The notes: generated by a model not told the origin, from the letters alone. A stretch of DNA of 64,000 nucleotides from Cyanidioschyzon merolae (GCA_000091205.1 AP006485.2); one strand, 5' to 3'; shown: positions 1,223 to 54,450, counted from the first letter of the stretch. Numbers and translations are program-made.

Positions 1223-3742
1223 TCGCGACACACGATAAAGCGCGTTGTGGATACGTTGTTGACCTCGGGTGTGTTCGAATCGTTAGGATCTCACACATGC
1301 GCAGGGCGTGATCTAAAGTCCATCGATTTCATTAGCGAATACATATTCATTTGAAAAATCCGATCCAAGTCGACGCATGTTCATCAAACGCGAGGTACCA
1401 GCATCCCTGCACGGTGACTACATTCCATCCATATTAGAATGACATGGAGCTAGTCCACTGATCCAATTCGAGCGAACGAGCCAGAGTTTGGGTCTCTCCC
1501 AACTGTGAAGAATACCAGCCAGCCATGACTGGCTTGTAATGAGACTGCTTCCTTTTCCTGTCTCTGATCTCCGGATTTTGAATACGGAGGTCCCTTTTTA
1601 CCCCTATATCCGTCGTCAGCTGTCGAGGATTGCTGCGTGCAGCGCTCAAGTTCCGACTTTGCTGCTTCCGACTCTTCGCAATCTATTTCATGCGTTGACG
1701 ACAGTTTGGATCCACGCTTCGTTTGCCATGTTCATCCTCTTTGCGTACAGCTTCAATGCGCCAGTCCGTGCATCGAAAATCGGCTGCGATCAGGTATGCC
1801 CATAAGTCCATGAGACCACCTTCGAATGCCGCTCTGTGGTGCATGAGCGCTTTCTTCATCGCTCGGGCGATACCCTCGACGGGCACAGAAGCTTATGCTC
1901 GATTCCTGGGTATGTTTTTGCAACTGGTGCCGGTCCGTAAGATCATCGGTTACAGCTGGGCGATCCCGAAGCCGAGTACGCTGTCTGCGACACACGCAAG
2001 TGCACGCTGTTGCATTTGGTAGAGGACTCGTTGAAAGTGATATTTTCCGTGACGAAACAAGTACAAGAAGCAAAATCCAACCTGGAGAACACGTCGAAAA
2101 ACTTCCACACGACAACGCTCTCTTTATGCGACCCGATGACGCACGCTTCGATGGATGTGATCGCTGTGCTTTCCAAGCGGAGCGCAGCGAATCCTCCTGG
2201 TCCCCGTGACGTAACAAATTCCATCGACAAAGCGTCGAAGGAGCCATTCCGAGAACGCGACCGAGAATCCTAAAAGCACATATGAATCTGAAACCTGATA
2301 TGAACGTTTTCAGAATATGGCGGCTGAACATGCAAAACAAGTATCGATAAAAAAACCGATACCCTGGAACAGACCGACCAGTGCATATTTCCATTTGAAT
2401 CGTACAAGGGTGCAGGCTCGACAACGTCAAAGCGGGATCGATCAGAACACTGGAGCGTCGGGAACTACAGTTGAGAGCGCGATGATGCTGGTCGATAGCC
2501 GCTGGGACCTCGAGGTGTCTGCACAGGCGTAGAGGTCTCTTCCGTAGCCGCTGGAAGCACGCGCGTTTCACTGGGCAGTGCGGATGCATCCGCCCTACCG
2601 AGTGCAGAAAAAAGCCATAGGCAACAAGCACGTCTCTTTCCAAAGCAGCGACGCAGTTGCATATTCCGCTAGGCAGGGTGCCTGTTCCGTTCCAGCGAAT
2701 CAGTGGCTGTAGAGCAGCTGCATGGACTCTGGGCTCATAGGCAGCGGTCGTTCGATACCACCAATGCTCGATTGTCGTGCCGCTCGCCTCCGGTGCGTAG
2801 CGGGACAACAACGACAACGACGACCATAGCAACTGCAATGACGGTATGGTATAGAATAAACCGTCTGCTCTCGCTGGAGCAGGGCATCGTCGACATCGCG
2901 AAGCTCGCCTGACAGAGGAGTGCCCCCGAAGCGGAACGCGTCTGCGTCATGCATTCCTCGTGCAGAGGCTACCACCCTGGAGGCAGTTTCCGCATATCGC
3001 GGGCTCTAGCAGCGAGCCCGCCTTCGAAGCAAGTTCGATACGAACGCATATCGTCCGAGTCGAAGGGCCCAATTTAGTTGAAGACTTCTGCTTGCGGTTC
3101 GCGAGAGGAAAGCGAATACACCATGTGACGATGCATGCGTCGCTGATACGATGGATTCCACGCTGCCGTCTCGAAGCGTTGCGTCAAAAACGCTTGAGAA
3201 GCCTCTAGACACAATCACACATGAAGCCGCTGACTGGTACGTTTTCATCGGCCGTTCGCGCTGCTCCACAGACAATCCGGCATGTCCTCAACGGTCTCGT
3301 TTGCGAGCTGTGGTACAGCCTCGCCTGCAACCAGCGCACGCTTAGGACGGTACCCTGATGCCTTTTTCTCGAATACCATGATGCTGGATACGGTATCAAG
3401 CTGCAGACCGGTATCTGGTGGAGTCGCCTTCAAGTCCGAGGCCGACGCGACGAAGTGTCCCTCTGGGGGTATCCCGTGCAACGCTGGCATCGCCACAAGC
3501 GACCTGAACGAGCTTCGCTGACGCAGGGAACTTTCGTCGCTTGTAAACCGGGAATCGATGCAGTCTCGTGGCGTGCGTCGCCTTTGGTCTTTCGTTTACG
3601 AGAGATGAGCACGCGCTAACGCATTGTGCGCGCGTTATCTTCAGCATGACACTCGACAGCGAGATCGTCTTGCGTATGCATATGCTCCGCGTTTCTCGAT
3701 ACAAGCTGGGCGCAGTAGACGAGCCCCCGCCGAATGGCCTCA

Positions 3743-8322: not shown

Positions 8323-8888
8323 GTCTCTGTTCGAAAGACGTTTCCACTTGCGGTACGTTCTTCTCGGCATTTGAGGAGGTACCGATGCACGGTACAACGT
8401 TGACGCTTTCTAAAGTTTCCATTTGAAAATATTTGGACATTTGATGCATCTTTCGCGCTATTCGAAGCGGTGTGAATGCGGCGAGCGCATGAACACGCCT
8501 GCTCAGATCCACGCACTGGTACTGGTACACTGGTACACTTTCCTGCGCCGATGTGAGCGCATGTTGCAGCTGTAGACAGCCGTCGCTTTCTACGCAACCA
8601 TTCTGGGCATGGGAGGTATGGCGTGGACAGCTGCGTGCAACCGTTGTCGTTGCGTGAATGTACAGGCAGCGTCGCACGGGCGTCATTACCACGGCATGAG
8701 GTTCTCCGAGCGTCCATTTGGAGGCAGCGTTGCCGTGAGATGCTCGCAACGCTATTTCGGAGCTTATCAGTCTAACGATGGTTAGCATCCACGATAGGCG
8801 CGATAGCTCAAGAAGGTCGCTCGATAGAGTATGAGGATCATGCATGGGGTAATCTCTGGCGGGTGCTCGTTGGACCTACTGCCATGTC

Positions 8889-10253
8889 GGATTCAAAGCG
8901 AACGCTGAACAGCTCGTTCCGCTCCTGCTTTGTGATTCTTTTCTGAACGTTTTTATTTGACGCCAACGCTAGCCATTCGAAAAGCATAAACAGGTGTTCG
9001 TGGACTCGTGTATAGTTTTGGGATTCCTGTGAGCGTGCCTCCATCGACGCTTTGCAGATGGGATGCGTTCTCCTCATCGGCATCAGGATGACGCTCGATT
9101 CTGTCCAATATGCTTACCTACATGCATCCCCGCTACTCCTTTCCGTAAACGTACAAGAATCAACAAGTTCGCTCTTCGAGGTCTCCAGCTTACCGTGTTC
9201 ACGGCAACGCGTAGGTACGGCAACTCACGTCGCTGGAGACGCTGGAAAGAGAGCACAACGTCGTCCCTGACCGACTTGCTCGCTAGCTTGTAGTGAGCGC
9301 CCACTGCGCTCGTCACCTCAAAGGTAACCCATGTCGTCCGAAAGCCGTACCCTACGCTCTTCGTTGCCACCGACGAAGAGACACTCGACGAGACCGGCCT
9401 GCTGCCTCTCACGGCATACGCGCACAGGCGCCCCGGGTATCCTCTGTTTGCACTGATAACGGTCTGCGACTCAGACTCGAGTCATCGCAGCAGTCGCTTC
9501 GCGTAGCGCGTACGTCACCGCGTCGGACAGCGTTGCGCGTTGACGGACCAGGATCAACCCCGGAGTGCTTCCCCAGCCTGGAGGCTCTCTCGCTCTCTCC
9601 GGTCCCTGCTTCACCACGATCGGTATCGCGTTCCGGAACTCGTCTATAGAATGGAACAGCGAGCGCTTGTGTATGCAGCAGATAGCCTATTCACCGACAC
9701 GATCGCTCAGAAGGAGCTCGTGATCCCACGGTACTGCACCGAGTGCGGACACCAGGCATGGCAACCCGGAGAGCCCGCTGTACCTTCAAGCGGCGTCTAC
9801 GGACTGACGGAGCAAGCGATCATACGTCACTGCAGACAAGTACGCGGTAACGCATGCGCTGTGGCAGACGTACGTGTATGCGTATCGAACGAGAAGCGAT
9901 TGTGAGTGTATCGACGGGCGACCCGCGGTTGTATCCAAGGACGATCATGGAAATGGGAAGCGCAGTCTAGATGCCAAGCTCCGCCTGTGCATAAAATGCG
10001 TCGATGAGCGTCGGAAATCGCGGAATCGGGACTTGAGCACGACCATCAGAGTGTTGCAACGATCGACACTGGAAGAAGAGGGACCCTGCGGATGTATGTG
10101 GTGACAGTCGGATATCTGATCGAGGAAAAGGAACCCGTCGCATACAAGACCCGCAAATGCTCGTCTTTACGCCAACTGAAACACAAATCCAATATTCATC
10201 CTGAATCTCCGAGTCCTGCAAGTTGACCATTCCACTTTATACGCTGACACGAA
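8889..10253 (+). mobile_element. Copy 1 of a ~1.37-kb dispersed or direct repeat, ~99% identical to 16624..17988. It carries a frameshifted TnpB/Fanzor-like C-terminal remnant (… LVIPRY-CTECGH …) on the + strand. Putative decayed IS605/TnpB-only (Fanzor-like) element.
   Basis: The whole six-frame ORF series (8838-10230) is duplicated with an offset of exactly 7735 bp and only ~10 substitutions. ORF 9540..9905 encodes ALVYAADSLFTDTIAQKELVIPRYCTECGH, which fits the TnpB consensus 'YKAe..G..v.V.PrYTSQ.C..CGh'. The element is a series of + strand ORFs in shifting frames (9052-10104), as expected for a pseudogenised nuclease gene. The size is typical of tnpB-only IS elements. Confidence 0.45.
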
Positions 10254-10382
10254 CGCTAAACGCTCAAGTTCGCTGGAGCGCTACCCTGAGGGCAGCTCGC
10301 GCGCCGCCGATGGCACGAATCCCTCTGAACATGCCGTGGACCTGCTGGATACCGGTATCGTGAACGCTGACATTGTGAACCC

Positions 10383-10841
10383 ATGTTTCGCCTGGGGTTT
10401 TCCATCCAGCGTCATGCTCCAAAGTGCCCGTTTTTGCATATAGAACTGCCAACGCGACAAAGGCGCACAGCGGTGTGCCCAGCGGCGAAAACCGCGGTCA
10501 CTGCCTCTCGTCGCCCGAGGCTTGCTATGGTGATCCCCGGTGACTCGCAAGCAGAGTTTGTTTTTCTCAGCGGAACCGTAACGTTCTTGAACGTCTACCA
10601 AAACCTCTTATTTGCTCGCATTATTTTGAGCTGGTTTCCGGCTGCGAGCCAGTTGAGTCTATTACAGCCGCTGTACGTGGTATGTGACCCGTTCTTGCGC
10701 TTTTTTCAGGGCATCTTACCACCAGTGGCGGGTATCGACTTTTCGCCGATCTTAGGGTTTACACTTTTACAGCTAGGTGCGAGGCTAACGGCGGCGCTCG
10801 GTCAGGAGTGCCCCAGCCGCGACGTTGCCAAGGCACCCTAA
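10383..10841 (+). CDS. YGGT family protein (Ycf19/YlmG-like), probably plastid-targeted.
   Basis: C-terminal YGGT signature ILSWFP ... PLYVVCDPFLRFFQGILPPVAGIDFSPILGFTLLQL. The N-terminal ~60 aa is basic and hydroxylated, consistent with a transit peptide. Confidence 0.65.
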   Translation: MFRLGFSIQRHAPKCPFLHIELPTRQRRTAVCPAAKTAVTASRRPRLAMVIPGDSQAEFVFLSGTVTFLNVYQNLLFARIILSWFPAASQLSLLQPLYVVCDPFLRFFQGILPPVAGIDFSPILGFTLLQLGARLTAALGQECPSRDVAKAP

Positions 10842-11783
10842 GCGCCTAGTGTGTTTGTGGTGTGACGTTATTCGCGCGCCAGTCTCGCCCAGCGGTTGTC
10901 GGTTCGTGCCTAGCAGCGCATCGTATCCAAAGTTGATCGTTCCCTGCTACGAATACGACGGGAGACACTGTTGCGTGTTTTCGCTGGAACGACGGATATC
11001 GGCTGGCTTGGAACGTTGGCGTCGTCGGGGAATCCACCTAGGCTAGCGTGTTATCGAAGAATCGGAACTGAGTACGATGAGTCTTGGCTAATATAGCGAT
11101 CGTGGTAATGCGCTACGGCTTTGGTGAGCAGGTTCCTCGGGAGCGTCGTGCTTGACGTCAGACGTAGCTGCTTGACAGGGAGAGAGCGAACGCGAGTTCG
11201 TGGGAATGTTATCCGATCTGCATTGGAGGCAGCTTTATCGCCCCTGAGCCTCGTCTCTGCAACACTTGTGACGTCGCTGATCCTTGCGGTTGTCTTTGAT
11301 GAATGAATTGCAGCTGGTTATGGTATGAGGCAGTGCTCCGTCGTGCATGCAGTGTGCCTTTCGATGGTCCGAATCGTTCGGTGTCGAGCGCACTTCTCAG
11401 GGTCACGGCGTTGCGCGTGGCCTAATGTCTGCGCTAGCGACGGTAGCGCGGTGATGAAGATGTCGCATCCTGGACCCGCATGACAGCTGCAAATCAAACG
11501 AAGACTCTACGGGAACACAGACTTATATCGTTTCGTAGCCAGCCAAGAAAAAATGTTTGCGGAGAAGGTGCGCTCTAGAGCGACCCTTTGCGTGGAAGCG
11601 ATAGTTGATGTGTTCCGGGCATTTGTCAGGCACCCTGCTACTTGCTTCCTCGCTGATACCACAGCGTATAAAATCCATCATATTCGGGCGGGAATCGCTC
11701 TCGGCTGGAGTCAGGGCACCGAAAGCTGTCCCAGCAACCGCGTACCTACAGATAGCTGGATATGCCGGCACCAGCGACACGAC

Positions 11784-12395
11784 TCAGGTTTCTGCAAATG
11801 CGCTTGCACGTCGTTTGCGGTACCAGTCAAACCAGAAAAAGAAAGCACTCTGGCGGAACTGGTCTGGAAGCTTCCAGGGATCGTCGCCGCGCTGGCTGCC
11901 GCCTTTGCCGGAGCCTTCCCTGCCAGCGCTGGCAGAAGCATCGACGCCAGATGGATTAATGTAACCCGTGCCGTTGCAACGACCACAAGTCACACGCCCG
12001 GTAGCACTGCAACGCAAACAGGCGTGAGGCACGCGTTCGCCTTCTACTTGGAAAAAGGTTTTCCCCTGGCACTGGAAGCACTTGACACGTCCCTCGCCTC
12101 GGCAGTCAGGGCACCGCCGTGGGCCACTTTTTTCAGTCTGTCTCCGTGCCTGAACTATCCGGTAAGCACCAACCGTGATAAACGCTGCTCCAACCGCAAT
12201 GGCAGCCTCCTTCTTCCAGAGTAGAAGCGGCACGGGCGGAGCGAAGTGGAGCACCCCGCTTCCGGCCTTAGGTACTGCCGCAGGACAGTTTTGCAACGCC
12301 AACCGACGACAACAGTGCTGAACACCCGTCACAAGATCAGGCGAAAAGTTCATTTGCGTAGTCGTATATGCGATAGAACCCCGTTCGGAAAGCAA
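11784..12395 (-). CDS. DnaJ-like zinc-finger protein (CxxCxGxG repeats) with one TM helix, of the LQY1/CYO1/BSD2 plastid type.
   Basis: CPDCRGEGRVKCFQCQGKTFF ... CLRCSATGRVTCGRCNGTGY gives four CxxC(x)GxG units. They are preceded by a hydrophobic helix AAIAVGAAFITVGAYRIV. The true start may be an internal Met. Confidence 0.55.
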   Translation of the reverse strand: MLSERGSIAYTTTQMNFSPDLVTGVQHCCRRLALQNCPAAVPKAGSGVLHFAPPVPLLLWKKEAAIAVGAAFITVGAYRIVQARRQTEKSGPRRCPDCRGEGRVKCFQCQGKTFFQVEGERVPHACLRCSATGRVTCGRCNGTGYINPSGVDASASAGREGSGKGGSQRGDDPWKLPDQFRQSAFFFWFDWYRKRRASAFAET

Positions 12396-12705
12396 CTCGC
12401 GATCGACGCTACCAAGTGCAGCGAAACGCGATACGGTGGTGGAAGCGAAACAAACGCTGGCTTCGACGACGCCAGCGATCCCCCGGGGGATGACGCTTCA
12501 CGAACCATTCGCTCCTGTTGCTGCGTTTGGAGGTGTATTCGGGGTTCCTCGGGTTTATCCAATCGACTAGACACAGCAATTCTGCAACAGAGAAGTAGCT
12601 GGGGCCTGTAGAGTACGGAGTCTGGATAGTCCGGACGTTCGGTGCTGACACGCTGGTCTGAGCTGGTGCATACGAAGCGCTGGAAACTCGAGTCGCTCAG
12701 CGGAC

Positions 12706-14694
12706 ATGTTTGCAGTACCGACACTGCAGAGCAGTCGGAAAGGACGCTTTTGGGGAACCACACCCGCTTTCCCAGGGAGACCGCCTGTAGCGCACCTACC
12801 GCTGCCTGTGTGCTGCTGCAGCACAAGGACTGGAACTGGTGACCCCGCGGACCCCCTCGAGTCATTCCTGGGTCGAGTGCAAGCAGCGCCCGCCCTGCGC
12901 GGACTCCAAGCGGCCGATGCGTCCTGGAAACGCCTCCAACAAACCGGGTCGGCCGCAGTCGGTCCACCAGAAGAGGTCGTAACTTGTTGTCGACAACCGG
13001 AGGCGCGACATACGAAGCCGAGTGATTTCGATGTCGTTGTGCTTGGCGGAACGCTCGGCATCCTAATCGGGACGGCTTTACTGCGACGCAACTCGCGTTT
13101 GCGCGTCGTCGTTGTCGAGCGTGGGGCACTCCGCGGCCGCGACCAAGAGTGGAACACCAGTCGGCGAGAGCTGGAAGTGCTCGTTGCAACCGGCGTGCTC
13201 TCGCATGAGACGCTTGAAAAGGTTATCCGTTCGGAGTGGAGGTCCATGCGTGTGGGTGTCGAAGCGGCTGCTTCGAGGAGCTTACCCGACCTTTCCACAT
13301 TCATGGTGCAAGACATTTTGAATATCGGCGTATCACCGCGCGCCCTCATCGACGAAGCGCTTGCACAGTTCACGGAGCTAGGTGGTCAAGTTTGGGAATG
13401 GTGTCAGTTTCAGGGCGCGGAGACCAATGGCAGAAACGTACTTGTGCGTCTCGAGTGCGTTCCGGGTACCGTGCAGCGTCCTGCAGTGGCCCTCGGAGCC
13501 GGTGGCGATCAGGCTATCCTGGCGACTCCACTGTTTCGGACGTCGATGACGGCTGAAAGTCGATCAAGGGAGCGCTCCTCAGAACCGATTCGTAAGCAAA
13601 TCCGGGCATCCTTGGTACTGGATTGCATGGGTAATGCCTCACCGATCGTGCGGCAACAGCGCGAGCTCGTGTATGGTCAGAAACGGCCAGACGCAGTGTG
13701 TATGGTGGTCGGCTCGTGCTGCAGAGCGCATCCCGGGCACGATCCCTTTCCTGATAACACCTCTGGTGACCTGATCTATTCCTTCACAACGGCCTTATCC
13801 TCGAACCGTCTCCAGTATCTGTGGGAGGCGTTCCCGTCGGACGCGGGGAGCAATCGCACAACCTATTTGTTCACGTACTTGGACGCAGATGCACGACGAG
13901 CGATCACTTTGACGGATCTCTATCGAGACTACTTGGGCTTGTTGCCGGTTTATCAAGGAGGGCATGCGTTTCATCGTGGTGATCGCGCTTTCCTAGACCG
14001 CTTGCAGCCACAACGAGCCCTGTTCGGTTTCTTCCCGGCCTACGAGAGGTATGCGCCACTGCCGACTGCATTGGATAACGTCCTTCCAATCGGTGATGCA
14101 AGTGGTGTTCAATCACCGTTGTCTTTCGGGGGTTTTGGTGCAATGCTTCGCCACTTACCGCGTCTGGTCGACGCCATTTGTGAAGCGCTTGCTGCTGAGG
14201 CACTCAGTGCCGAGGATTTGCGTTGCATCCAGCCGTATTTGCCATCTCTGTCGGTGACGTGGTTGTTTCAACGAGCGCTTTCGTATCGAGTTCCTTCACG
14301 AGCTTCACAGACGCTAGACGAACGAGTTGTGAACGAGATTCTGGGATGGAGCCTCCTTACCATGCAGGATGACGAGAGCGCATTGCGGCCGTTTCTCCAG
14401 GATGTCATCCAGTTTCCGGGACTGGTGCGCACGCTAGCTCGAACTACCGTGCGCGTGCCTGCTCTCGTGCCGCGGATCCTGGGTCATATTGGTGGACCCG
14501 TGCCACTCCTCGGCTGGCTGCGGCATTTGATGGCACTTGGTGTCTATGATCAAGCAAGTCGCCTCTTCCATTCGGAAAGCGCGCTGTCTTCTTTCATCGA
14601 TGCTCGTCTGAAGGACCCGAAAAAGCGATTCCGATGGCATCGACAGCTCGAGGCGTGGCGTTACGGAAGCGGCCGTGATCTGCACATCGACTAG
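12706..14694 (+). CDS. FAD-dependent oxidoreductase of the 'lycopene beta/epsilon cyclase family protein' type (At2g32640-like), probably plastid-targeted.
   Basis: Rossmann FAD motif FDVVVLGGTLGILIGTALLRRNSRLRVVVVERGALRGRDQEWNTSRRELEVL matches the characteristic DV.V.GGTLGI..ATAL ... ERN.L.GREQEWNIS pattern. Uninterrupted 662-aa ORF with a basic N-terminal extension. Confidence 0.55.
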   Translation: MFAVPTLQSSRKGRFWGTTPAFPGRPPVAHLPLPVCCCSTRTGTGDPADPLESFLGRVQAAPALRGLQAADASWKRLQQTGSAAVGPPEEVVTCCRQPEARHTKPSDFDVVVLGGTLGILIGTALLRRNSRLRVVVVERGALRGRDQEWNTSRRELEVLVATGVLSHETLEKVIRSEWRSMRVGVEAAASRSLPDLSTFMVQDILNIGVSPRALIDEALAQFTELGGQVWEWCQFQGAETNGRNVLVRLECVPGTVQRPAVALGAGGDQAILATPLFRTSMTAESRSRERSSEPIRKQIRASLVLDCMGNASPIVRQQRELVYGQKRPDAVCMVVGSCCRAHPGHDPFPDNTSGDLIYSFTTALSSNRLQYLWEAFPSDAGSNRTTYLFTYLDADARRAITLTDLYRDYLGLLPVYQGGHAFHRGDRAFLDRLQPQRALFGFFPAYERYAPLPTALDNVLPIGDASGVQSPLSFGGFGAMLRHLPRLVDAICEALAAEALSAEDLRCIQPYLPSLSVTWLFQRALSYRVPSRASQTLDERVVNEILGWSLLTMQDDESALRPFLQDVIQFPGLVRTLARTTVRVPALVPRILGHIGGPVPLLGWLRHLMALGVYDQASRLFHSESALSSFIDARLKDPKKRFRWHRQLEAWRYGSGRDLHID

Positions 14695-15092
14695 GTGACT
14701 CGGGTGGATGCAGCCCCCGGAAGAACTGTTGTATGCAGCAATCACGTGGCAAGCACATTGTGAGGATTCGGCACGACGCTTTCAGCGATATAGCGAAAGC
14801 GGTTCGTTTGAAGGCTTCAGACGAGCCAGCACTTGGATTCGATGTGTGCACGGTAACGCACTGACCCAGTCGTTGGCCAATGGCCGACTGCAAGCGCACG
14901 ATAGTCCGAGGGCATGCGACACCTTCACCCGCTGTGCAGCGTGTTACTCATGAAGCATTGGTATAGGAATATACGAATATGCGGATCCACGCCTAGGACT
15001 GCATCCGTAGATGACTGGAGGCTGGTGGCTCGCCGGCCGGTCCGCCAGCCCATGTTCGAGGTGCAATGATTGCTCTCGGGTGATGGTGCAGG

Positions 15093-15281
15093 TTCACGTG
15101 GAAGCGACCTTGCACTGCAACCACGTATGGTGCCTGATACATATTCCAATGCTGCAGGTTCACGTGGAAGCGACCTTGCACTGCAACCACGTATGGTGCC
15201 TGATACGTATTCCAAGGCTGCAGGTTCACGTGGAAGCGACCTTGCACTGCAACCACGTATGATGCCTGATACGTATTCCAA
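15093..15281. repeat. 63-bp x 3 tandem repeat.
   Basis: The unit 'ggttcacgtggaagcgaccttgcactgcaaccacgtatggtgcctgatacatattccaatgctgca' is repeated three times. The same 21-aa peptide is repeated in ORFs on both strands. Confidence 0.85.
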
Positions 15282-15704
15282 GGAAGCGTGACGCGCGCGT
15301 GCAGCCCAGAAATAACACGGTGCACCTGAAGCTGTCGCAGTCGTATTTCGAGTGGCAGAACAAGGCACGAATGACCTGAACTCGACAGCATTAGGTGCAG
15401 TCGCCGTGAATATGCTTGTACAGGGCGCCGCGCCCGCGTCTAAAGAGCGCTCCATCCTGTGCAGACGCTAGCGTCCAGCTGTTGTGTCTGTGCGTATCAA
15501 GCTGGTGACGTCTCCGATTATGAACCAAGCGTTCCGAGCGATACCTTATCAATATCGCACGCCTGCTGCTACTCATCAGCGACATCGTAGGTGCAACGGT
15601 ACACGCAACCAAGTGCCGATATAGGCACGTCTCAGGCAGGTACCGAGGATTCCCAGGCACAGCAGCAGGGGCGCGAGTTTCGAAGCCAGTTCCGCGATGC
15701 TGTC

Positions 15705-16427
15705 TCATTCGCGGTACCGGGTACGCTCGTCGCCCTCGATCTGGATGGCTTTATAAACGCCGAGCAGTGAAGAGAATCCCAAAAAAGTCAGCATAAGCGG
15801 TGTGAACGCAGGCTCTACGCGCTCCCGCAAAAAGGCTGCCACTGCGGCTGGCAGCGCGGTGCGTCCAGAGGCTGCACTAGCTTCGAATACAACGCCGATT
15901 CCAGCACAGAGTACCAAGGCGAGCATGCTGAGAACGAGACGCTGTAGCCACTGTTCAGCAGAGTCAAGAGCTTCGTAGTTTCCCCCGAATAGAGCTCGCA
16001 GGCCGCGAAACAGCCTTACCGCCAGGCGTTCACCCTCCTCCTTTGACACAGCAGCGGCTTGGTCCAAGTCACGCCCCGCTCGTTCGCGCTGCAAACCAAA
16101 AGCGTCCAGAATTTGTTCCGTGCGATCTTGTTGTCTTTGAGGACCAAATCCACGACCTGCTCGCATATCATCACTGCTGCCACCAGCACGAGCGCCACGA
16201 CGACTGGCTTCGGGATCAGCGGACGCTCTCGAGCGTTGCGTTCGAGAGCTTGTTCGTGAACGACCCTGCTCAGCACGCTTCGCAGTGTCAGGCGAGTCAT
16301 CGCTTGCTAGCGGTTCACATGTTCTGAGATGAAAGACGCCCGGCTTACGACGTTTCAGCGGGTCGACAAACGCTTTCGTGGACGCTGACTTGGGTCGCAA
16401 GCGCCGTCTTATAACCGCGACAAACAT
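15705..16427 (-). CDS. Hypothetical protein with a C-terminal two-helix membrane domain.
   Basis: 240-aa ORF. The hydrophobic segments LVLSMLALVLCAGIGVVF and FTPLMLTFLGFSSLLGVY follow a charged N-terminal half. No family recognised. Confidence 0.3.
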   Translation of the reverse strand: MFVAVIRRRLRPKSASTKAFVDPLKRRKPGVFHLRTCEPLASDDSPDTAKRAEQGRSRTSSRTQRSRASADPEASRRGARAGGSSDDMRAGRGFGPQRQQDRTEQILDAFGLQRERAGRDLDQAAAVSKEEGERLAVRLFRGLRALFGGNYEALDSAEQWLQRLVLSMLALVLCAGIGVVFEASAASGRTALPAAVAAFLRERVEPAFTPLMLTFLGFSSLLGVYKAIQIEGDERTRYRE

Positions 16428-16623
16428 AACCTTGCAGGTTGAAGTTGAACGAGGTACTTCTTCTGCAAAGCAAGTTTACCAGTGCAACGGCCCTTTTCGC
16501 AAGCCTTGCACGAGTAACCAGCAAGAAAAAGGCTGGCGCAAGCGTCCACTATGGAAACAAAGTGAATGCTAGCTGGTTATCAGCAATGGAGGTGCGGATG
16601 CTGTCTGCTCAGAACAGCGTACT

Positions 16624-17988
16624 GGACTCAAAGCGAACGCTGAACAGCTCGTTCCGCTCCTGCTTTGTGATTCTTTTCTGAACGTTTTTATTTGACGCCA
16701 ACGCTAGCCATTCGAAAAGCATAAACAGGTGTTCGTGGACTCGTGTATAGTTTTGGGATTCATGTGAGCGTGCCTCCATCGACGCTTTGCAGATGGGATG
16801 CGTTCTCCTCATCGGCATCAGGATGACGCTCGATGCTGTCCAATATGCTTACCTACATGCATCCCCGCTACTCCTTTCCGTAAACGTACAAGAATCAACA
16901 AGTTCGCTCTTCGAGGTCTCCAGCTTACCGTGTTCACGGCAACGCGTAGGTACGGCAACTCACGTCGCTGGAGACGCTGGAAAGAGAGCACAACGTCGTC
17001 CCTGACCGACTTGCTCGCTAGCTTGTAGTGAGCGCCCACTGCGCTCGTCACGTCAAAGGTAACCCATGTCGTCCGAAAGCCGTACCCTACGCTCTTCGTT
17101 GCCACCGACGAAGAGACACTCGACGAGACCGGCCTGCTGCCTCTCACGGCATACGCGCACAGGCGCCCCGGGTATCCTCTGTTTGCACTGATAACGGTCT
17201 GCGACTCAGACTCGAGTCATCGCAGCAGTCGCTTCGCGTAGCGCGTACGTCACCGCGTCGGACAGCGTTGCGCGTTGACGGACCAGGATCAACCCCGGAG
17301 TGCTTCCCCAGCCTGGAGGCTCTCTCGCTCTCTCCGGTCCCTGCTTCACCACGATCGATATCGCGTTCCGGAACTCGTCTATAGAATGGAACAGCGAGCG
17401 CTTGTGTATGCAGCAGACAGCCTATTCACCGACACGATCGCTCAGAGGGAGCTCGTGATCCCACGGTACTGCACCGAGTGCGGACACCAGGCATGGCAAC
17501 CCGGAGAGCCCGCTGTACCTTCAAGCGGCGTCTACGGACTGACGGAGCAAGCGATCACACGTCACTGCAGACAAGTACGCGGTAACGCATGCGCTGTGGC
17601 AGACGTACGTGTATGCGTATCGAACGAGAAGCGATTGTGAGTGTATCGACGGGCGACCCGCGGTTGTATCCAAGGACGATCATGGAAATGGGAAGCGCAG
17701 TCTAGATGCCAAGCTCCGCCTGTGCATAAAATGCGTCGATGAGCGTCGGAAATCGCGGAATCGGGACTTGAGCACGACCATCAGAGTGTTGCAACGATCG
17801 ACACTGGAAGAAGAGGGACCCTGCGGATGTATGTGGTGACAGTCGGATATCTGATCGAGGAAAAGGAACCCGTCGCATACAAGACCCGCAAATGCTCGTC
17901 TTTACGCCAGCTGAAACACAAATCCAATATTCATCCTGAATCTCCGAGTCCTGCAAGTCGACCATTCCACTTTATACGCTGACACGAG
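16624..17988 (+). mobile_element. Copy 2 of the ~1.37-kb TnpB/Fanzor-like repeat, in direct orientation relative to copy 1.
   Basis: Colinear with 8889..10253 at ~99% identity. The six-frame ORF set is duplicated, including ELVIPRYCTECGH in ORF 17275..17640. Confidence 0.45.
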
Positions 17989-18205
17989 CGTAGCAGCGTC
18001 GCAGCAAGCAGATACCTCGGGACGCTCTTTCCGCTCGTTCGGCATACGCGGCCTCCACAGACCTGTATCTCGAACAGACGCATCCGAGTGTCTGAACTCG
18101 GCTTTTCATTGCTCGTCGAAAGGAGACCGGGTCTGGAGCTTTCGTAACTGCGTTGCGTTTTTATTTGGGGTATTGTACAGATAACTGGAATAGAAGTTGT
18201 GAAGT

Positions 18206-24012: not shown

Positions 24013-24177
24013 ACCTTAGACTCGTACCAACCAGTTGCTGTCAGTTGGAGAACTCCACCGCTGAACCTCATATCCGAGAGCGGCACGAATCGCACGCTGC
24101 GCCCCGCTGAACTGGACGCGAAAACAGAGGTGCAGGAGGCGGCATCGTCCGATGACGCTGCCCGATGGCGATGCCAT

Positions 24178-24590
24178 GTCATCGAGCGTCATCATCGTCA
24201 TCGAGCAGCAGCAGAAGCATCATCATCGTCATCATCGTCATCGAGCAGCAGCAGAAGCATCATCATCATCATCATCGTCATCGAGCAGAAGCATCATCAT
24301 CATCATCGTCATCATCGAGCAGCAGCAGAAGCATCATCATCGTCGTCGTCATCATCGAGCAGCAGCAGAAGCATCGTAATCATCGTAATCATCATCATCA
24401 TCATCATCGAGCAGCAGCAGAAGCATCATCATCATCATCATCATCGAGCAGCAGCAGAAGCATCATCATCGTCGTCGTCATCATCGAGCAGCAGCAGAAG
24501 CATCATCATCATCATCATCATCGAGCAGCATCATCATCGTAATCATCGTCATCATCATCATCGAGCAGCAGCAGAAGCAGCGGTGCGATC
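24178..24590. repeat. Imperfect minisatellite of ~33-42-bp units, (CAT/CGT)n-CGAGCAGCAGCAGAAG, about 10 units.
   Basis: Units are readable directly in the sequence. All three + frames give His-, Ser- or Ile-rich homopolymer ORFs (24130..24717 and others), a typical repeat artefact. It lies in the intergenic region between the divergently transcribed DDX49 and GARS. Confidence 0.9.
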
Positions 24591-24883
24591 AGCGCAGCCG
24601 CCGGGACACAGTACCGGTCAACGCATGCGATACGTCGCCTTTCCTAGTACGCGACTCGTGAAGAGCGTTCCGTGTGTCTCTGTTCAGCAAAGCGGTGTGT
24701 GCGTTTGTGCTCGCTAGGCGTCCTGGTAGACCGTTATAGCTTTATTGAGCCAGTTGCTGACGTGGGCGGCATTAAGTGACAAACGGAGCATTCTGCCCTA
24801 GATCGCGTCCAGCGGCGACAAAGCAACGCACACGAGACGTTCCGGCTTACCTCCTGAGTCCATAAACAGCGCGTGGACTTGCG

Positions 24884-26830: not shown

Positions 26831-28134
26831 GTCTTTCGCTTTCCGAGTGTGCTCTGGGCTAGCATCGAAGCGTCGCAGGAGCGAATCGTTGCTGCTGCGT
26901 AGGCGCCGACGCTCATCGCTCGGGAGGTCTGGGATGAGGCGCGCAACCAGGCAGCGATGCCCGGGGTAAGCGCACGGCCCGGAGGCGTGGCGGTCACGGC
27001 TTGCACGCCACTGGGTCAGCTGGCGGCTTCTGTGCGGAGCGTGCGCCTACCACAGGCCACGGTGAGCGCTCATGGAAGCTTTTACGGTGCCGAGGGGATA
27101 GCGAACGGGTCGGTGACCTTGAATCGGGTGCGCGTCCGTCGTTTGGATGACCATTTTTTTGAATCCTGTTAAAAGCAGCAGCGTAGATCGGAGTTTGACC
27201 TGCTTCCGTTCCATGCCATGCCAGAGAAAGAGGCCGCAACAAGCGCGAATGATGCGATTGCTAGGCGTCGGCAAGCACCGTACAGCCGAAAAGCACCAAA
27301 TATTGGTTCGGTCGGACGCTGCGGGTGTCTCGACGACGCATGTCAGGCGTTGCACGCGCGTTACACGTCCCTGCGGAAGCTCGCTTCACCAGCAGCTGCA
27401 TCCGCTGGAGGTGGCAGCCACTGCACCCAGGTTCGATTCACACGGCACGCTGTCCTGCTCTCGCTGTTCCTACCTTGCTATCTTTCTCCGCGCACGTTTT
27501 CTTAGATGCACGGGGTCGACGTTCGAAGTGCAGCAGTAACGGCGTATGCATTCATGCGAAGTTTGAGGATTCATATCGGTCTTGACGGGGTAGCGTCTTC
27601 CACGCTTGCGACTGGTATGCTTTCCGCCTCGGAAATCAAGATGATTGGCGACAACCTCAAGCGAGGGTTTGTAAAATACCCAATGTCATGATCGAACACA
27701 AGCGCACCAGCCTTCATGCTTCTGCATCCCGTACGTACATCTGGGTTGACGAGGGAAAACCTCGACCAGATCTCTTTACGATTCCACGCTCATGCAGAAC
27801 GTTCACTCGACACGTCAAGCCAGATAATCGAATCTGCGCGAAAGGCAAACGCTCCTCTCTGGGTCGCCAACGGCACAACGACATTCGACAGTGACACGAA
27901 GCCTTTCGGGGGATGCGCTGCCAACGGCTTCCGTCGCTTTTGTTTGCGTGGAATAGAGTCTTGGACTCAGGGCTTGATTCATCGCAACGATCGCTTCCAG
28001 TGCGCATTGCCTGACCGCTACACAGGAAAGGGGCAACTCGGATTGACGTTTGTCGATTTTCTCTCAAGCCTGGAATCTCATTTCGGTACTTTTTTCATCA
28101 CGGGTAATATCGTGTCCCACAAAACCCCTCTCCG

Positions 28135-28658
28135 ATGGAAGAGCGAGCTCTTGCGCATGCAGCAGACAGCGTGCTCGCTGAGCGGATCACCAGAAAGATG
28201 CTCGTGATCGTTGGGCTCGGTACCGGGCGTCGAAACCGACGCGGACATCGAAGAGAGCCCTCTATACCCGTCAAGGGCATATGCCAAGCGATATACGAAG
28301 CACAAAGCGTCCATGGATGACCCTCGCAGAAGGAGTAGGTTTCGTTACGATGCATACTCGCAAACACCTGACCACCTCCATGTGCCACTCTTACGAAGGG
28401 CGCACTGACCCTGTATACAAAGCAGATGAAAAGGCAAAAGAGGGGCGGATCACGACTTGCCTGCTAAGCATCAAACGGTACAATACTAGCCAGAAGCTGC
28501 GAAATAGGGACGTGAACGCTGCCGTCAACCTCGCCTGCTGGTTCAAACGGAGCTCGAGGTACATGTGCAACCGGTGTCTTGAAAACGGGAGACACGAGAG
28601 AGGAAACAAAACCTGCCCTAGACAAGCCCTGAATGGCTTGCATTGGCGGCCGAGATAA
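28135..28658 (+). pseudogene. Degenerate TnpB/Fanzor-like (IS605 OrfB) remnant that retains the RuvC-III motif. Frameshifted, with the zinc finger lost.
   Basis: ORF 28281..28658 encodes PVYKADEKAKEGRI ... YNTSQKLRNRDVNAAVNLA. The YKA ... TSQ and RDVNAA.N(I/L) motifs are TnpB hallmarks, and RDVNAAVNL is at nt 28506-28532. Upstream at 28135-28210 there is clear nucleotide similarity to 9651-9725 of the 1.37-kb repeat (MEERALAHAADSVLAERITRKMLVIV versus MEQRALVYAADSLFTDTIAQKELVI). Three frames are needed to read it, so it is a pseudogene. Confidence 0.45.
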
Positions 28659-30089
28659 CCAGCCCTAGTTGTGTTGGGTGAACACCCAAAATAGGTGCGT
28701 GTGCCTCGTCCATGACATGCCGACATGAGTGCAGCGACGTGCATGCGAGCGTCCGTTTCGCCACCTCCTGTCTGTGTCACGCACGAATCGCACCGCGTTC
28801 GTTCCTATCATGAACGACGTTCGATACCACATGTGTACAGCCTATTCATGAATGCTCTTCGACTGAGCGCAGCTCACTTGAACCTTGCAGCGTAGCGAGG
28901 TATACGCGTTAGACGAGGCGTTTCGGAACGAAACGAATCCGAGGCGTCGCGCTGCACGACACGTGCCGTCGTGCACGTGTCCTTGAATCGGAACCTCCCT
29001 CGTGCAGATATTCTCGATGGCGATCACAAGTTGTTGGTATGGAAAATCGCTTGACGAGAATGCTCTCCTTATTTTTTTTGCCAGAGACGCTGACCAGAAA
29101 TGGCGAGGCCTCCGACTACGACGATGCTGCGACAGTAAAACGCAGCCACTAGTCTCGGTTACTTGTTTTGTATTGCGAGACACCCGGGATTCGCGCGACA
29201 CCTGCACGGGTGTCGAGGCAAAGAACGTGTTTCGGTTAGAGGGTCGCAATTCTTGGCGCTCCGTCGACATGTTGTGGATCATCACAGGGCCCGGACAACG
29301 CTGATGCGCACCATGCACGCTGCCAGAACGCTACCCTCATCGCTCAGGGCGGCACGCGGTTTTGCCGTCGGGGTATGACGTATCCGCTGAGCGGTTCCTG
29401 CTGACGTAGTTCAGAGTGTTGCAAAGAGGACCCTCAATGTTACGGAAAATCCAGGTGCGCCCCAAGCCAAGCGGTAAGCTACCTGCTGTTGCCATGCCGG
29501 TCCCAAGAACCAGGTGTTTCATTCGATGACATGGGAGAACCCCATGGAAGCCTCGATGCAACCCAGGGTCTCGTTCGTGCGCGTCTACGATAAGCGATTC
29601 AGCTCGAGCGGTGGATAACAGGCCGCCTGGACGTATGGCAGACTGAGAACGACAAGGAGTTCCGCTCCTTTTTTTTGCTACGGGCGAAGCGCACACCATC
29701 CCTATCACGAACAGAGAAGTCGTTTTCCAGAGTCCCCCAGACGCCCCAGTGCTGTCACCAGCAGAGGAAGCGACCTCAGCGCATCAGTAGCTGATTGCGC
29801 ACGCCACCAGGCATAGCCCACAGCTCCGAAACGAGAAAGCGGTATGGCGAAATACTGGATTCTGGAAGCACTCGATCTTCATTTGATCATGGATAAATAG
29901 CGAGTCAAGTTAGCGTCTCCAATGAACACGAACAGTTCCAGTAACAACGAGAGAAATCTCAACGCGTCGGCAGATACTTGCATATGCCACCGAGTCGATT
30001 CGTCAAGTCTCCCTCACAGCACCGCCTAGAGACTCGCGCGGAAACAATGTTCCGCGTTCCGCGCATCCCGCCAGCCTATGCCTCTGGAC

Positions 30090-30475
30090 AGTAGCCAGCG
30101 TATCCGGCGGGTATCACTATACAAATTCCTAGTGACAAAATGCTAACAGTAGCCAGCGTATCCGGCAGTCGTTATCATACAATATCCTAATGACAAAATG
30201 CTAACAGTAGCCAGCGTATCCGGCAGGTACCACCATACAATATCCTAATGACAAAATGCTAACAGTAGCCAGCGTATCCGGCAGTCGTTATCATACAATA
30301 TCCTAATTACAAAATGCTAACAGTAGCCAGCGTATCCCGCAGTCGTTATCATACAGTATCCTCATGACAAAATGCTAACAGTAGCCAGCGTATCCCGCAG
30401 TCGTTATCATACAGTATCCTCATGACAAAATGCTAACAGTAGCCAGCGTATCCGGCAGGTACCACCATACCAATG
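30090..30475. repeat. 58-bp tandem repeat, ~6.6 units, immediately 5' of the peroxiredoxin start codon.
   Basis: The unit 'agtagccagcgtatccggcagtcgttatcatacaatatcctaatgacaaaatgctaac' recurs at 30090, 30148, 30206, 30264, 30322, 30380 and 30438, an exact 58-bp period, with minor variants (ggtaccaccat or gtcgttatcat). Confidence 0.9.
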
Positions 30476-30600
30476 AGGACGCTGCCCATTCGCACTGCGA
30501 TGACGCAGCGCCTCGATACAGGGCAGCGCTGCATCTCCAGCTTTTGGGCGCTTCGCTGTTGCTCTGCGCTTCGCGAAACGCCTTCGTACCCACGGAGCAA

Positions 30601-38856: not shown

Positions 38857-41003
38857 GATCCCCGGTTGCCGGACGTCATGGATATCGCGACACCTGCAAA
38901 TCAAGCGGATGCAGCCATTGAGCGGTAAGGAAAGCGCGCGAAGCTGCTCAAGTTTTCCAGCACCCGTTATCACCGACATTCGGGTATATCAGACGCCAAC
39001 AGGCATGCCAGTGCGCTCAACGACAGCATCAGAATCCATGGCGGTGCACTGAGAACCGTATCGATGAGCCCAGGATACCTCGCAAAAGCTCGGTTTCAGC
39101 GAAAGCTCACGAGCGTCCCCCGGTCGCATGGAGTCAATCTTTGGCAAGAGTGCGTGGCAGACTTTTGTCGGAATCGCCAACGACCTCCGTTGTACGTAGG
39201 CAAGAATCGTTCCTGCGCTAACGCGTTCAATGAGTCTCAAAATGAACTGTGCAAAGCATCGTGTCGTTTGGGGATTCTCTCGGGCGATAGACGTGCTGGA
39301 GCGCGCACTAGCTGCACTCCTGCTTATTCAAACAGAGCTTTCCATGAAACAGGAATCGACTTTGTCTGACGCCCGTTGATGCTCTAAAGACAACATACAC
39401 CAAAGAGAAACGCGTTGTCCGCTGGAACTCGTAATGAAGAAGCGCGTGCACAAGACGGTGTGCAATATACACTTCGAGTGTCAGATATCGAGACAGTTCA
39501 AGGTCCGAAGCATTTCGTCGTGAGAGGCTACCAGCATCCATGAGAACGTGCACTTTCTGAACTGAACCATCAAAACCTCGCTCCAGGTCAGCAACGTTTG
39601 TCGTGCTTCCGCCGGGTCCAAGGCCTATGTTTCGAACGGAGATTCGAGGGAATTCTAGGCCAGTCAGCTTATGTATTGTGCTGCGACGCTGAGGATTTCG
39701 ATGAAGAAAAACCAGTAGCCAGGAGAGACGGCAGGGTATGCTCGCCCGCACCAAGGCACTGGTTTGATACAGTTCAGCAGTCCACAAAGCCTGGTGCACC
39801 ATGTTTAACCATTCAATGGGAGCGACTCCCCCGTTCGGCTATTCAGCAACGATCATGCAGTTCCATAACTCGATATGACTGAGTGTACGTGATAAGCGAC
39901 GTCAACGCTGTCACGGATGCTTCGTACTCCTAGCACCTCGATACCACTGCTGTTCAGCCCAAAACCCGAGCGTCCACGGATCCGCTGACTCGCCAGACAT
40001 CGAGTGAGCACAGTTCGGATTATAGTGAGTTGCCCTCAACGATTTCAGATCGCGCTTGTGTAACCTAGTGTGTCTCCCGGGGGCCCGTCCTGGCCCTATG
40101 CACCCCCAGCTGGTACACGAAGGCCTGCCACCAGCGTCGACCAAAGCGTTAGAGGAATCCGGCGTTGAGCGCGACCTCCGAACGCAGAGCGCTCCCGTCG
40201 CAGGTGAAGCCCCTTGATGCAGCTCCACGGAAAACTAGAAATGCTGGAGCGCTCCATGATCGGTGTACCTTAAGGACACCCTCATCCTATATCGACCAGC
40301 ACGTGGAGCCGGACGCGGTCATGCACCGCTGTAGGCTTTGACGCTGCGCGGTCGGTAACGCTGCTCGATGGGCGATGTGCTTGAGAGGCGCACCTCATGA
40401 CTGCTTGGTTGTGGCGACAACGACGATACAGCCTTGAGGTCATGCGACATTGACAGCTGCGCGCTGGTCAAACGAACAGGCATACATGTGTCGCTTGTTT
40501 GAGACGATTGTTCGTCCTAGTTGCGCACGATGTTCATAGAGCTGACGGATGCGTAGAACAACGAGAACGTCATCGAGCACTCGAATGCAACGAGGCATGG
40601 TTACCCTCTTCATCCAGTATCCAAGTGCTGGCAGGCGGCCCCAGGTGTCTGGTTTCTCAAGTGGTGTTCGCGCTCCTCGCATTGTCCAAAAAGATCCACA
40701 CGCGCCTCGTTGACGTTTCGATTTACCGCGATTTGGTTACTGGCTGACCATCCAGTCGATGCTCGTGAATTTATTGTCTGGGAAACTTGGCATTCATCAG
40801 GCGTAAAGAGCGAACACCTCGCGATGGAGTGAAGCACACGCGCGCGAAGCAAAGACTCGAAGATGCAAGCGCGTTGGAATGTAACGCTGCAAACCAGTCG
40901 AGCTTCCTCGCTCCGTCCGAGCACTGCTCTAGCTCGTTCCGCAAACAGGAAAATGCATGCACTCGTAGCGCTATCAGTGCCCATTTCCGTTCCAGAAAGA
41001 ACC

Positions 41004-54100: not shown

Positions 54101-54450
54101 GACTACTAGTAGATCCCTTCGCGCTTTCGCAAACAGTACGCCTGTCTGCGCAGCTTGCTGGCTCCCAGAACGATAACTAGCCGTGTTCGCGTATCAGATG
54201 TAGCGTTCCTCAAGCCGATGCCTTCAGTGGGACTGCCAACACAGTTCTGTCTTCGTGATGCATCTGAACCAACGGTAAAGGCGCAATCGCGGACGATCAT
54301 GCCGTGCGCACGACCCACGATAGAACGTACAATTCAACCAGTATGCCCGGGTCTACGTATGGGTAATGGAACTGAAAAGTAGGGCGTGGATCGATGGATG
54401 CTTTACTGCGCGCTGAAAACAACCAAAAAAGAAACGAGAAGAAAGTAGAG
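51200..54450 (-). other. AT-rich compositional island (~35-45% GC against ~57% for the rest of the window). It carries a series of frameshifted, K/R/E-rich minus-strand ORFs. Possibly a degenerate mobile element or a foreign-derived insertion.
   Basis: There is a marked drop in GC, for example around 53560-53700. Minus-strand ORFs 53543..53779, 53397..53585, 52663..53145, 52217..52762 and 51615..52106 lie in shifting frames with 100-bp overlaps. ORF 52217..52762 has motifs '[27 protein letters not shown]' and '[16 protein letters not shown]', which are reminiscent of a DDE-transposase catalytic region but unassigned. There is a 2-copy ~72-bp tandem repeat at 52247-52390. Confidence 0.35.

Follow-up and report, generated by a model that had tools for sequence, protein, structure and literature searches.

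Fanzor1 proteins have already been described in mariner-type elements, namely PUl-1 and PUl-2 of Pythium ultimum, which are 3.6-3.8 kb long (Bao and Jurka, 2013; PMC3627910). Cyanidioschyzon merolae itself harbors the Fanzor1 element CMe-1A, of which about 150 copies, approximately 80% identical to their 3169-bp consensus, are present in the genome; this element encodes a 734-aa protein and is reported to carry no terminal inverted repeats (TIRs) (PMC3627910). A third point of reference is provided by the IS200/IS605 elements containing only tnpB, which have no TIRs, produce no target duplication, possess subterminal hairpins and a Y1 TnpA partner, and encode a full-length TnpB. In the present study we analyzed in silico 64,000 nucleotides of C. 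merolae (GCA_000091205.1 AP006485.2; the whole stretch is hereafter called the window), in which two direct repeats, copies A and B (Table 1), had been described in a first-pass annotation as decayed tnpB-only elements of the IS605 type. We consider it fairly probable (approximately 0.65) that each repeat is an entire but dead copy of an old, internally deleted, non-autonomous Tc1/mariner/IS630 element with a Fanzor1 tail, and that the two have been kept alike by gene conversion.

Comparison of the two copies by repeat search and base by base showed that their near-identical tracts (99.3% identity) remain colinear throughout, 7735 bp apart, and contain 10 mismatches and neither insertions nor deletions, which confirms the observation of the first-pass annotation. 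The mismatches are located at 8892, 9027, 9100, 9317, 9623, 9683, 9712, 9823, 10175, and 10224 in copy A coordinates, and seven of the 10 are transitions. At the right edge, position 10253 is mismatched and 10254-10255 are again identical. Immediately outside the repeat, the two sequences are no more alike than random DNA (35-40 mismatches per 50 bp), and flank-to-flank alignments of A and B revealed no significant similarity past the element. The near-identity of the copies is far beyond chance, and the true limits of the element are slightly wider than the identity tract (Table 1). The plus-strand open reading frames (ORFs) in shifting frames and the peptide previously cited from them are both present; the ORF at 9540-9905 (+) encodes LVYAADSLFTDTIAQKELVIPRYCTECGH, and the longest ORF of the repeat unit comprises 121 aa.

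The repeats are members of a multi-copy family and not a unique duplication. BLAST of the unit against the window and subsequent alignments revealed two old, diverged, partial copies, c28 and c2 (Table 1), and when the unit is aligned with both at the DNA level, the majority consensus contains a single long open frame. With this alignment as the pattern, a scan of metagenome contigs yielded 33 loci from Cyanidioschyzon-like genomes, which correspond to loci A, B, c28, and c2 plus about eight more paralogous loci. Element length across the family is 1370-1383 bp, divergence among the copies is about 30%, and no copy contains an intact ORF. A family consensus was built from 12 copies in two separate builds, which are the two consensuses referred to below.

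The family also defines the ends of the element. On copy A coordinates, conservation among family members rises at about 8871-8910 and is back to background after about 10270. The right terminus, ...CTGAYAYGGGTG (GTTCCATTTTATxCTGAYAYGGGTG), is common to 10 copies, which diverge directly after it, and corresponds to 10255 and 17990 in the pair. The consensus ends, CAGCCGTGTCGGATTAAAATGGAAC (left) and GTTCCATTTTATGCTGACATGGGTG (right), form 25-bp TIRs that are complementary at 19 of 25 positions by hand count on the consensus, and the own ends of one metagenome copy (L039) are complementary at 16 of 25. A generic inverted-repeat scan of single copies did not report the TIRs, which are decayed in the unit. 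In the outer 10 bp of the left TIR, seven positions differ between copy A and copy B (CAGCGTACT...), each of which still resembles the family TIR. The dinucleotide TA is found on both sides of the element in two metagenome copies (L039 and L036), directly left of copy A (8877-8878) and directly right of copy B (17991-17992). Since the termini and TIRs at 8879/10255 and 16615/17990 are shared, the repeats are whole elements. The idea that B is a 5'-truncated secondary copy of A, whose left flank seemed to hold about 20 bp more homology, was dropped, given that both left TIRs are complete and differ only in their outer 10 bp.

Regarding coding content, PF13358 (DDE_3) was matched by the two consensuses with E-values of 6.9e-8 (32.9 bits) and 1.8e-7 (31.6 bits), the gathering score being 28.6. 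The match spans profile positions 3-117 of 146; the domain is truncated and the third catalytic residue is not secured. The first D motif, PTLFVATDEETL, lies near 9351-9386 and the second, CFTTIGIAFRNS, at 9607-9642, with the D lost in copy A. No Pfam helix-turn-helix family was matched at E<=1 in the region where an N-terminal helix-turn-helix remnant was assigned by eye (Table 1). The Pfam match extends into the Fanzor part, and the true end of the DDE_3 domain is probably near 9643. A frame-2 peptide, 'TAYSPRGSP', was considered as the YSPxLNPxE motif of the transposase, which would make the adjoining 'MEQRAL' block non-Fanzor; this was rejected because the protein P0165, discussed below, shows the block to be genuine Fanzor1. 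It follows that the transposase/Fanzor junction is near 9643, where it is common to all family members. Judging from its termini and domain content, the element can be assigned to the Tc1/mariner/IS630 superfamily of TIR transposons.

In the 3' half of the consensus, in a frame different from that of the DDE_3 match in the middle part, PF07282 (Cas12f1-like_TNB) was matched with E-values of 1.4e-6 (28.8 bits) and 4.2e-7 (30.5 bits) for the two consensuses (gathering score 26.3). The Fanzor part of the consensus reads ...LYRMEQRALAYAADSVLAEGIAQKKPMIVGYGTG..GEPSVPVKGMYRAMKQAF..EHLTTxKCHRCEG...FRLCMKCVD..RNRDLNAAINIL..., with NRDLNAAINIL as its RuvC-III motif (NRDVNAAVNL in c28), and the zinc ribbon (TNB) of the unit is decayed to CEC...CIKC. 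BLASTP of the consensus gave CRe-4 (3e-8), CRe-2 (7e-8), and PUl-1 (7e-7), Fanzor1 proteins from Chlamydomonas and Pythium, and, more weakly, CMe-1 (8e-4), as opposed to an E-value of 6 for the Fanzor2 protein ACa-1, so that among these Fanzor1 and Fanzor2 proteins this part is classified by similarity as Fanzor1. Furthermore, hhalign of a frame-corrected three-copy translation against eight Fanzor1 C-termini resulted in an E-value of 3.7e-6 and a score of 46.6 over 142 columns, compared to scores of 10-18 for reversed and column-shuffled controls (shuffles 12.5 +/- 2.1). Even within the unit, the unbroken stretch YRMEQRAL...RH (9648-9842), which is the peptide cited in the first-pass annotation and is truly of Fanzor origin, is 39% identical to P0165 over 62 aa (pairwise E 2e-7). 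Upstream of 'LYRMEQRAL' nothing aligns to Fanzor, and the region instead encodes the DDE_3 remnant. Only the last 150-190 aa or so of Fanzor1, about a third of a TnpB-like protein, are retained; RuvC-I and the N-terminal half (WED/REC) are missing from every copy. A hidden Markov model of 10 Fanzor sequences gave only E of about 3 for the unit when run against six-frame ORFs, and a PDB sequence search with the three-copy profile returned only chance matches to ribosomal protein uL24.

The presence of TnpB/Fanzor-derived sequence in the unit, as had been proposed, is thus supported by P0165, PF07282, and the BLASTP matches to Fanzor1. The motif on which the proposal was based is a different one: 'LVIPRY-CTECGH' aligns to Fanzor1 '...KPVIIGYGTG', i.e., to a helix and a strand that precede the zinc ribbon, and not to 'YTSxxCxxCG', whose real counterpart, 'YAYRTRSDCEC', sits in the next frame relative to the cited peptide. 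The first-pass annotation was right at the family level, wrong in its element type and motif, and not supported in its suggestions of a guide RNA and of recent mobility.

Several long ORFs are associated with the family. In the 12-copy consensus the Fanzor frame is open for about 370 codons (window-equivalent about 9150-10200), about 180 of which lie across the region that encodes DDE_3 in another frame; this long frame across the DDE_3 region is probably due to chance or is a consensus artefact. A 361-aa ORF crosses c2 (1753-2838, -) in a frame unrelated to transposase or Fanzor and with no Pfam hit, and its counterpart in a related strain has 397 aa (L024 2220-3410). Long ORFs of this kind in paralogous loci were rejected as preserved genes, being apparently accidental and out of frame. 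A protein database search with the unit translation had P0164 as its sole match, which is the same locus in another strain (copy B; L011 1414-2190, 258 aa); it was rejected as a preserved ORF, since its annotation is an artefact of a gene caller that took TGA as Trp. The same family has a further locus about 3 kb past c2, outside the window on its left side (L024 6362-6452, equivalent to L042).

The closest intact relatives of the Fanzor part, identified among 5.8 billion proteins, are P0165, P0166, and P0167, with 39-43% identity and E-values of 1e-35 to 1e-37. They share with the C. merolae family the block QRALARAADxLV..KPVIIGYGTG..GEPSVPVKAMYRA and differ from it in being long ORFs of 418-610 aa. 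P0165 (551 aa; L045 5569-7224) carries the RuvC-I motif GLDPGRVN about 110 aa upstream of the block shared with the unit, and the N-terminal part of P0167 (610 aa; L046 6001-7833) is unrelated and of low complexity, with the Fanzor sequence adjoining it at '...GVLQKRPVIIGYGTG'. The contigs of these relatives (L045 and L046, as well as L047-L049) contain Rpb2, RNA ligase, 2H-SAK, and Peptidase_S74 neighbors and many small ORFs, and look like giant-virus genomes. No DDE_3 family was found among the genes called on the contigs of P0165, P0166, and P0167.

The element resembles PUl-1 and PUl-2 in combining a DDE (IS630/Tc1/mariner-type) transposase and Fanzor1 within one TIR element with TA target sites, which are putative in the C. 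merolae family. Its Fanzor part aligns with that of PUl-1 over 143 aa (E 7e-7), including the blocks IxYG, PVKG, DEYRTSxxCxxC, and NRDxNAAxN. However, the C. merolae element measures only about 1.38 kb, with the transposase cut after the second D motif and a Fanzor tail of about 150-190 aa; its transposase part is weakly similar to that of PUl-1 (E 0.04), and no intact copy was found. The tnpB-only IS200/IS605 elements are similar in length (about 1.3-1.4 kb) and in possessing a TnpB-type TNB/RuvC-III region. The TIRs, the TA flanks, the DDE_3 remnant, and the retention of merely the Fanzor1 C-terminus set the C. merolae element apart from them, and the IS605-type assignment had to be abandoned.

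As far as CMe-1A is concerned, its published consensus and 734-aa protein (supplement of PMC3627910) were searched against the window. A decayed, nearly full-length copy with its ORF in pieces was located at 51273-54404 (-), with 80% identity to the consensus, coinciding with a low-GC dip (47%) at 52-54 kb. In addition, a diverged Fanzor1-like remnant at 38857-39378 (+) shows 32% identity to CMe-1 residues 431-601 (tblastn E 6e-13; phmmer E 1e-11) and no detectable relation to the family of the unit. CMe-1A belongs to the same genome and the same Fanzor1 protein superfamily as the unit. Unlike CMe-1A, the family described here has TIRs and a DDE_3 remnant, and no more than 23% identity (E 8e-4) was found between its consensus and the CMe-1 protein. 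The unit was also rejected as a CMe-1A fragment, because blastn with the CMe-1A consensus had no match in the unit at E<=0.01 and tblastn had none at E<=0.1.

Environmental assemblies provided information on the age of the two insertions. In many of them A is joined to the flanks of A and B to the flanks of B (L001, L010, L013, L015, L016, and junction fragments). Every sampled environmental strain has A and B at the same positions as C. merolae 10D, the strain of the window, from which it differs by about 1% in flanking DNA, and both insertions therefore predate the split of those strains. No third near-identical copy was detected in the environmental contigs or the window, the other family members being about 30% diverged. 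Only 10 sites distinguish the 10D copies from one another, as against 18-34 between either of them and any environmental copy, and at 8928, 9118, 9639, and 10242 the 10D copies share a base that was found in no environmental copy. At the left edge of the repeat, where the unique flank phases reads for copy A versus copy B, the bases at 8892/8894/8898/8899 are TCTA in environmental A and CGGC in environmental B, as compared to TCGC and CCGC in A and B of 10D. The pattern implies one or more conversion tracts from B to A with an end between 8892 and 8898.

We thus favor gene conversion, or concerted evolution, of two old neighboring copies as the process behind their near-identity. The pair behaves as in known cases of concerted evolution by gene conversion, in which paralogues within a lineage are closer than orthologues and divergence is concentrated at the repeat edges. 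Nothing is unusual in this respect; the substrate here is a dead transposon pair 7.7 kb apart. Homologous recombination in C. merolae is very efficient, as is known from gene targeting. The first-pass annotation had left the choice between recent mobility and gene conversion, and of these the latter is favored, the former being at odds with the insertion sites of A and B, which are shared across the sampled strains without exception, and with the lack of a third young copy.

The following history may be proposed. The parent would have been a larger mariner-type element with genes for a DDE_3 transposase and for Fanzor1. An internal deletion would then have joined the transposase, just past the second catalytic-D motif, to the last 150-190 or so Fanzor1 codons. 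The shortened element may have spread long ago by means of transposase supplied in trans, leaving the dozen or so copies that are now about 30% apart. As A and B lie 7.7 kb apart in the same orientation, homologous recombination would repeatedly copy one onto the other, and only the outermost 10-20 bp or so of the left TIR would have escaped conversion and diverged.

Several points speak against this reading. The TA flanks are incomplete in the window, being TA/CT for copy A and AA/TA for copy B and absent from c28 (TG/CA); these copies are old. The unit alone had no significant Pfam match, with no OrfB/TnpB family even at E<=10 in scans of ORFs, six frames, and the frame-corrected chain, and the TnpB-family Pfam signal appeared only with the multi-copy consensus. 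It is also from the consensus alone that we infer a deletion, and not some other rearrangement, at the junction of DDE and Fanzor. The full-length parent was not found, as the search of 5.8 billion proteins gave only virus-like Fanzor1 proteins and one decayed paralogue. Moreover, short-read metagenome assemblies cannot phase the interior of the repeat, and the comparison of strains is fully reliable only near its edges and where all environmental contigs agree. Finally, the identity of A and B extends to within 2 bp of the right terminus, where hardly any homologous sequence is left to anchor a conversion tract.

This last observation speaks for recent transposition, in which B or both copies would have inserted lately through an active DDE_3 transposase acting in trans, e.g., with B hopping locally from A, and the near-identity would be due to youth alone. 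Each copy spans the whole element including its two TIRs, their identity reaches the exact right terminus, and each has TA at one end; cut-and-paste transposons also often reinsert close to the donor site. We nevertheless regard this scenario as unlikely, given that the insertions are shared by all sampled environmental strains despite the flank divergence from 10D and that no other young copy exists. In addition, seven differences in the outer 10 bp of the left TIR would not be expected for a fresh copy, the four derived sites shared by the 10D copies are absent from all other strains, and no intact related transposase was found in the protein search. A broader form of this idea, namely that the non-autonomous family is still mobilized by an active DDE_3 transposase of C. 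merolae or its virus, with the junction representing a derivative selected for mobilization, appears improbable to us; if true, it would mean that C. merolae or an infecting virus still supplies such a transposase.

It is highly improbable that the pair is a plain segmental duplication of unique host sequence through replication or repair, with no mobile element involved. Although there are just two near-identical copies, close together, the boundaries of the unit fall within 0-10 bp of the termini of a multi-copy TIR family with at least 10 further diverged loci, and the unit contains transposase and Fanzor domain remnants. The first-pass annotation had named a host duplication with no other copies as part of its refuting case; such a duplication is contradicted by the family and its termini. 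There is an equally slim chance that the repeats are kept alike as host recombination substrates for excision, circularization, or amplification of the 6.4-kb block with its four plastid-related genes. Contigs L003-L006 are circular permutations of the unit plus 6.4 kb (7872 bp, with a 4-bp end overlap), and L011 and L017 join the left flank of A to the right flank of B via a single unit. Such contigs, however, are the expected paths of a short-read assembler through a collapsed 1.36-kb repeat and are most likely just that; the same samples give contigs with the normal arrangement (L001, L013, and L016), and no sequence conservation above neutral expectation was observed. In a weaker variant of the mobilization idea above, at which the circular and deletion-type contigs might hint, real excision or amplification of this plastid-related block would be mediated by the direct repeats.

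With RuvC-I and the entire N-terminal half of Fanzor lost and the frames interrupted, no copy is able to encode a nuclease. In characterized Fanzor systems the guide RNA is encoded at the 3' end of the gene together with the right transposon end. No sign was found of the omega-RNA scaffold that had been suggested for this part of the unit: folding of the last 200-300 nt is poorer than that of shuffled controls (z +1.7 and +2.4), an Rfam search of the unit 3' end gave no match, and in the extreme 3' part besides the TIR the copies are diverged beyond a covariation test. Least probable of all is a functional RNA-guided system in which the unit, with its Fanzor gene end next to a right transposon end, gives an omega/fRNA or a short Fanzor-like protein serving a nuclease elsewhere, such as that of the abundant CMe-1A copies (PMC3627910), since to the poor folding and the absence of an Rfam match are added a longest ORF of 121 aa without RuvC-I, no DNA similarity of the unit to CMe-1A, and a divergence between strains at least as fast as that of the flanks (1.5-2.5% vs. 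approximately 1%).

Table 1. Coordinates of the repeat pair, its predicted remnants, related copies and intervening genes in the window.
Feature	Position	Strand	Evidence
Copy A, non-autonomous TIR element of about 1377 bp	8879..10255	+	Family conservation profile, multi-copy alignment, TIR search
Copy B, same element family as copy A	16615..17990	+	Base comparison with copy A, TIR search
Near-identical tract within copy A	8889..10252	+	Repeat search, offset comparison
Near-identical tract within copy B	16624..17987	+	Repeat search, offset comparison
Left TIR of copy A, CTGCCATGTCGGATTCAAAGCGAAC	8879..8903	+	Multi-copy alignment, TIR search; 20/25 match to family consensus left TIR
Right TIR of copy A, TTCCACTTTATACGCTGACACGAACG	10230..10255	+	Multi-copy alignment; family right end stops exactly here
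Putative N-terminal helix-turn-helix remnant of transposase, consensus SFRILGRLFGVAPSTLCRW, unit ...VPPSTLCRW	9014..9061	+	Assigned by eye
DDE_3 (IS630/Tc1/mariner-type) transposase remnant, frameshifted	9363..9708	+	PF13358 on consensus, mapped to window
Fanzor1 C-terminal remnant over two frames, stop codon 10102-10104	9645..10104	+	hhalign, PF07282, BLASTP, P0165 match
Fanzor1 'KQRAL' helix and VVxGYG strand	9645-9743	+	
Fanzor1 PVKG block	9771-9794	+	
YAYRTRSDCEC, counterpart of DExxTSxxCxxC	9877-9918	+	
LCIKC, second CxxC	9982-10005	+	
RuvC-III motif decayed to NRDLSTTIRVL	10024-10056	+	
c28, old diverged family copy, keeps NRDVNAAVNL	27424..28731	+	BLAST of unit vs. window, alignments
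c2, old diverged family copy with internal deletion	1426..2412	-	BLAST of unit vs. window, alignments
Unique host DNA separating copies A and B, four genes	10256..16614	.	ORF calls, protein matches
YggT/CCB3, between copies A and B	10383-10841	+	ORF call, protein match
BSD2-type zinc-finger protein, between copies A and B	11784-12395	-	ORF call, protein match
CruP-like lycopene-cyclase-family protein, between copies A and B	12706-14694	+	ORF call, protein match
LPA2-like protein, between copies A and B	15705-16427	-	ORF call, protein match

Concerning the genomic setting of the pair, the window is placed on the 481,791-bp chromosome of C. merolae 10D by exact protein matches, which include GlyRS (BAM78982), tyrosine aminotransferase (BAM78979), and YggT (BAM78975), among others. 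Since the protein accessions of the neighboring genes run consecutively and skip no number at copy B, a gene annotation is presumably lacking for at least this copy. Neither tRNA genes nor Rfam families were detected in a scan of the window. A 66-bp tandem repeat at 15083-15283, downstream of the CruP-like gene, gives repetitive peptides in ORFs of both orientations (e.g., AAGSRGSDLALQPRMVPDTYS), and its copy number varies among strains, with extra units in contigs L002-L004 and L006. Two further tandem arrays were observed, one at 24149-24619 with a period of about 40 bp and irregular spacing, and one at 30030-30493 in which a 174-nt reference recurs in six registers at steps of 58 bp, corresponding to about eight units of 58 bp.

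Overall, the repeats are not a candidate locus for an RNA-guided nuclease and need no further screening as such. Both the occurrence of Fanzor1 in C. merolae and that of Fanzor1 in mariner-type elements have been published, and the present family is a further, diverged member. C. merolae has at least one more Fanzor1-bearing transposon lineage beyond CMe-1A, of the mariner type known from oomycetes, and this 64-kb stretch of a 'repeat-poor' genome holds six Fanzor-related remnants from three lineages. Recombination and assembly artefacts are to be expected when the region is engineered or assembled from short reads. The pair would offer a clean, small-scale case of dispersed repeats evolving in concert, in a host with very efficient homologous recombination.

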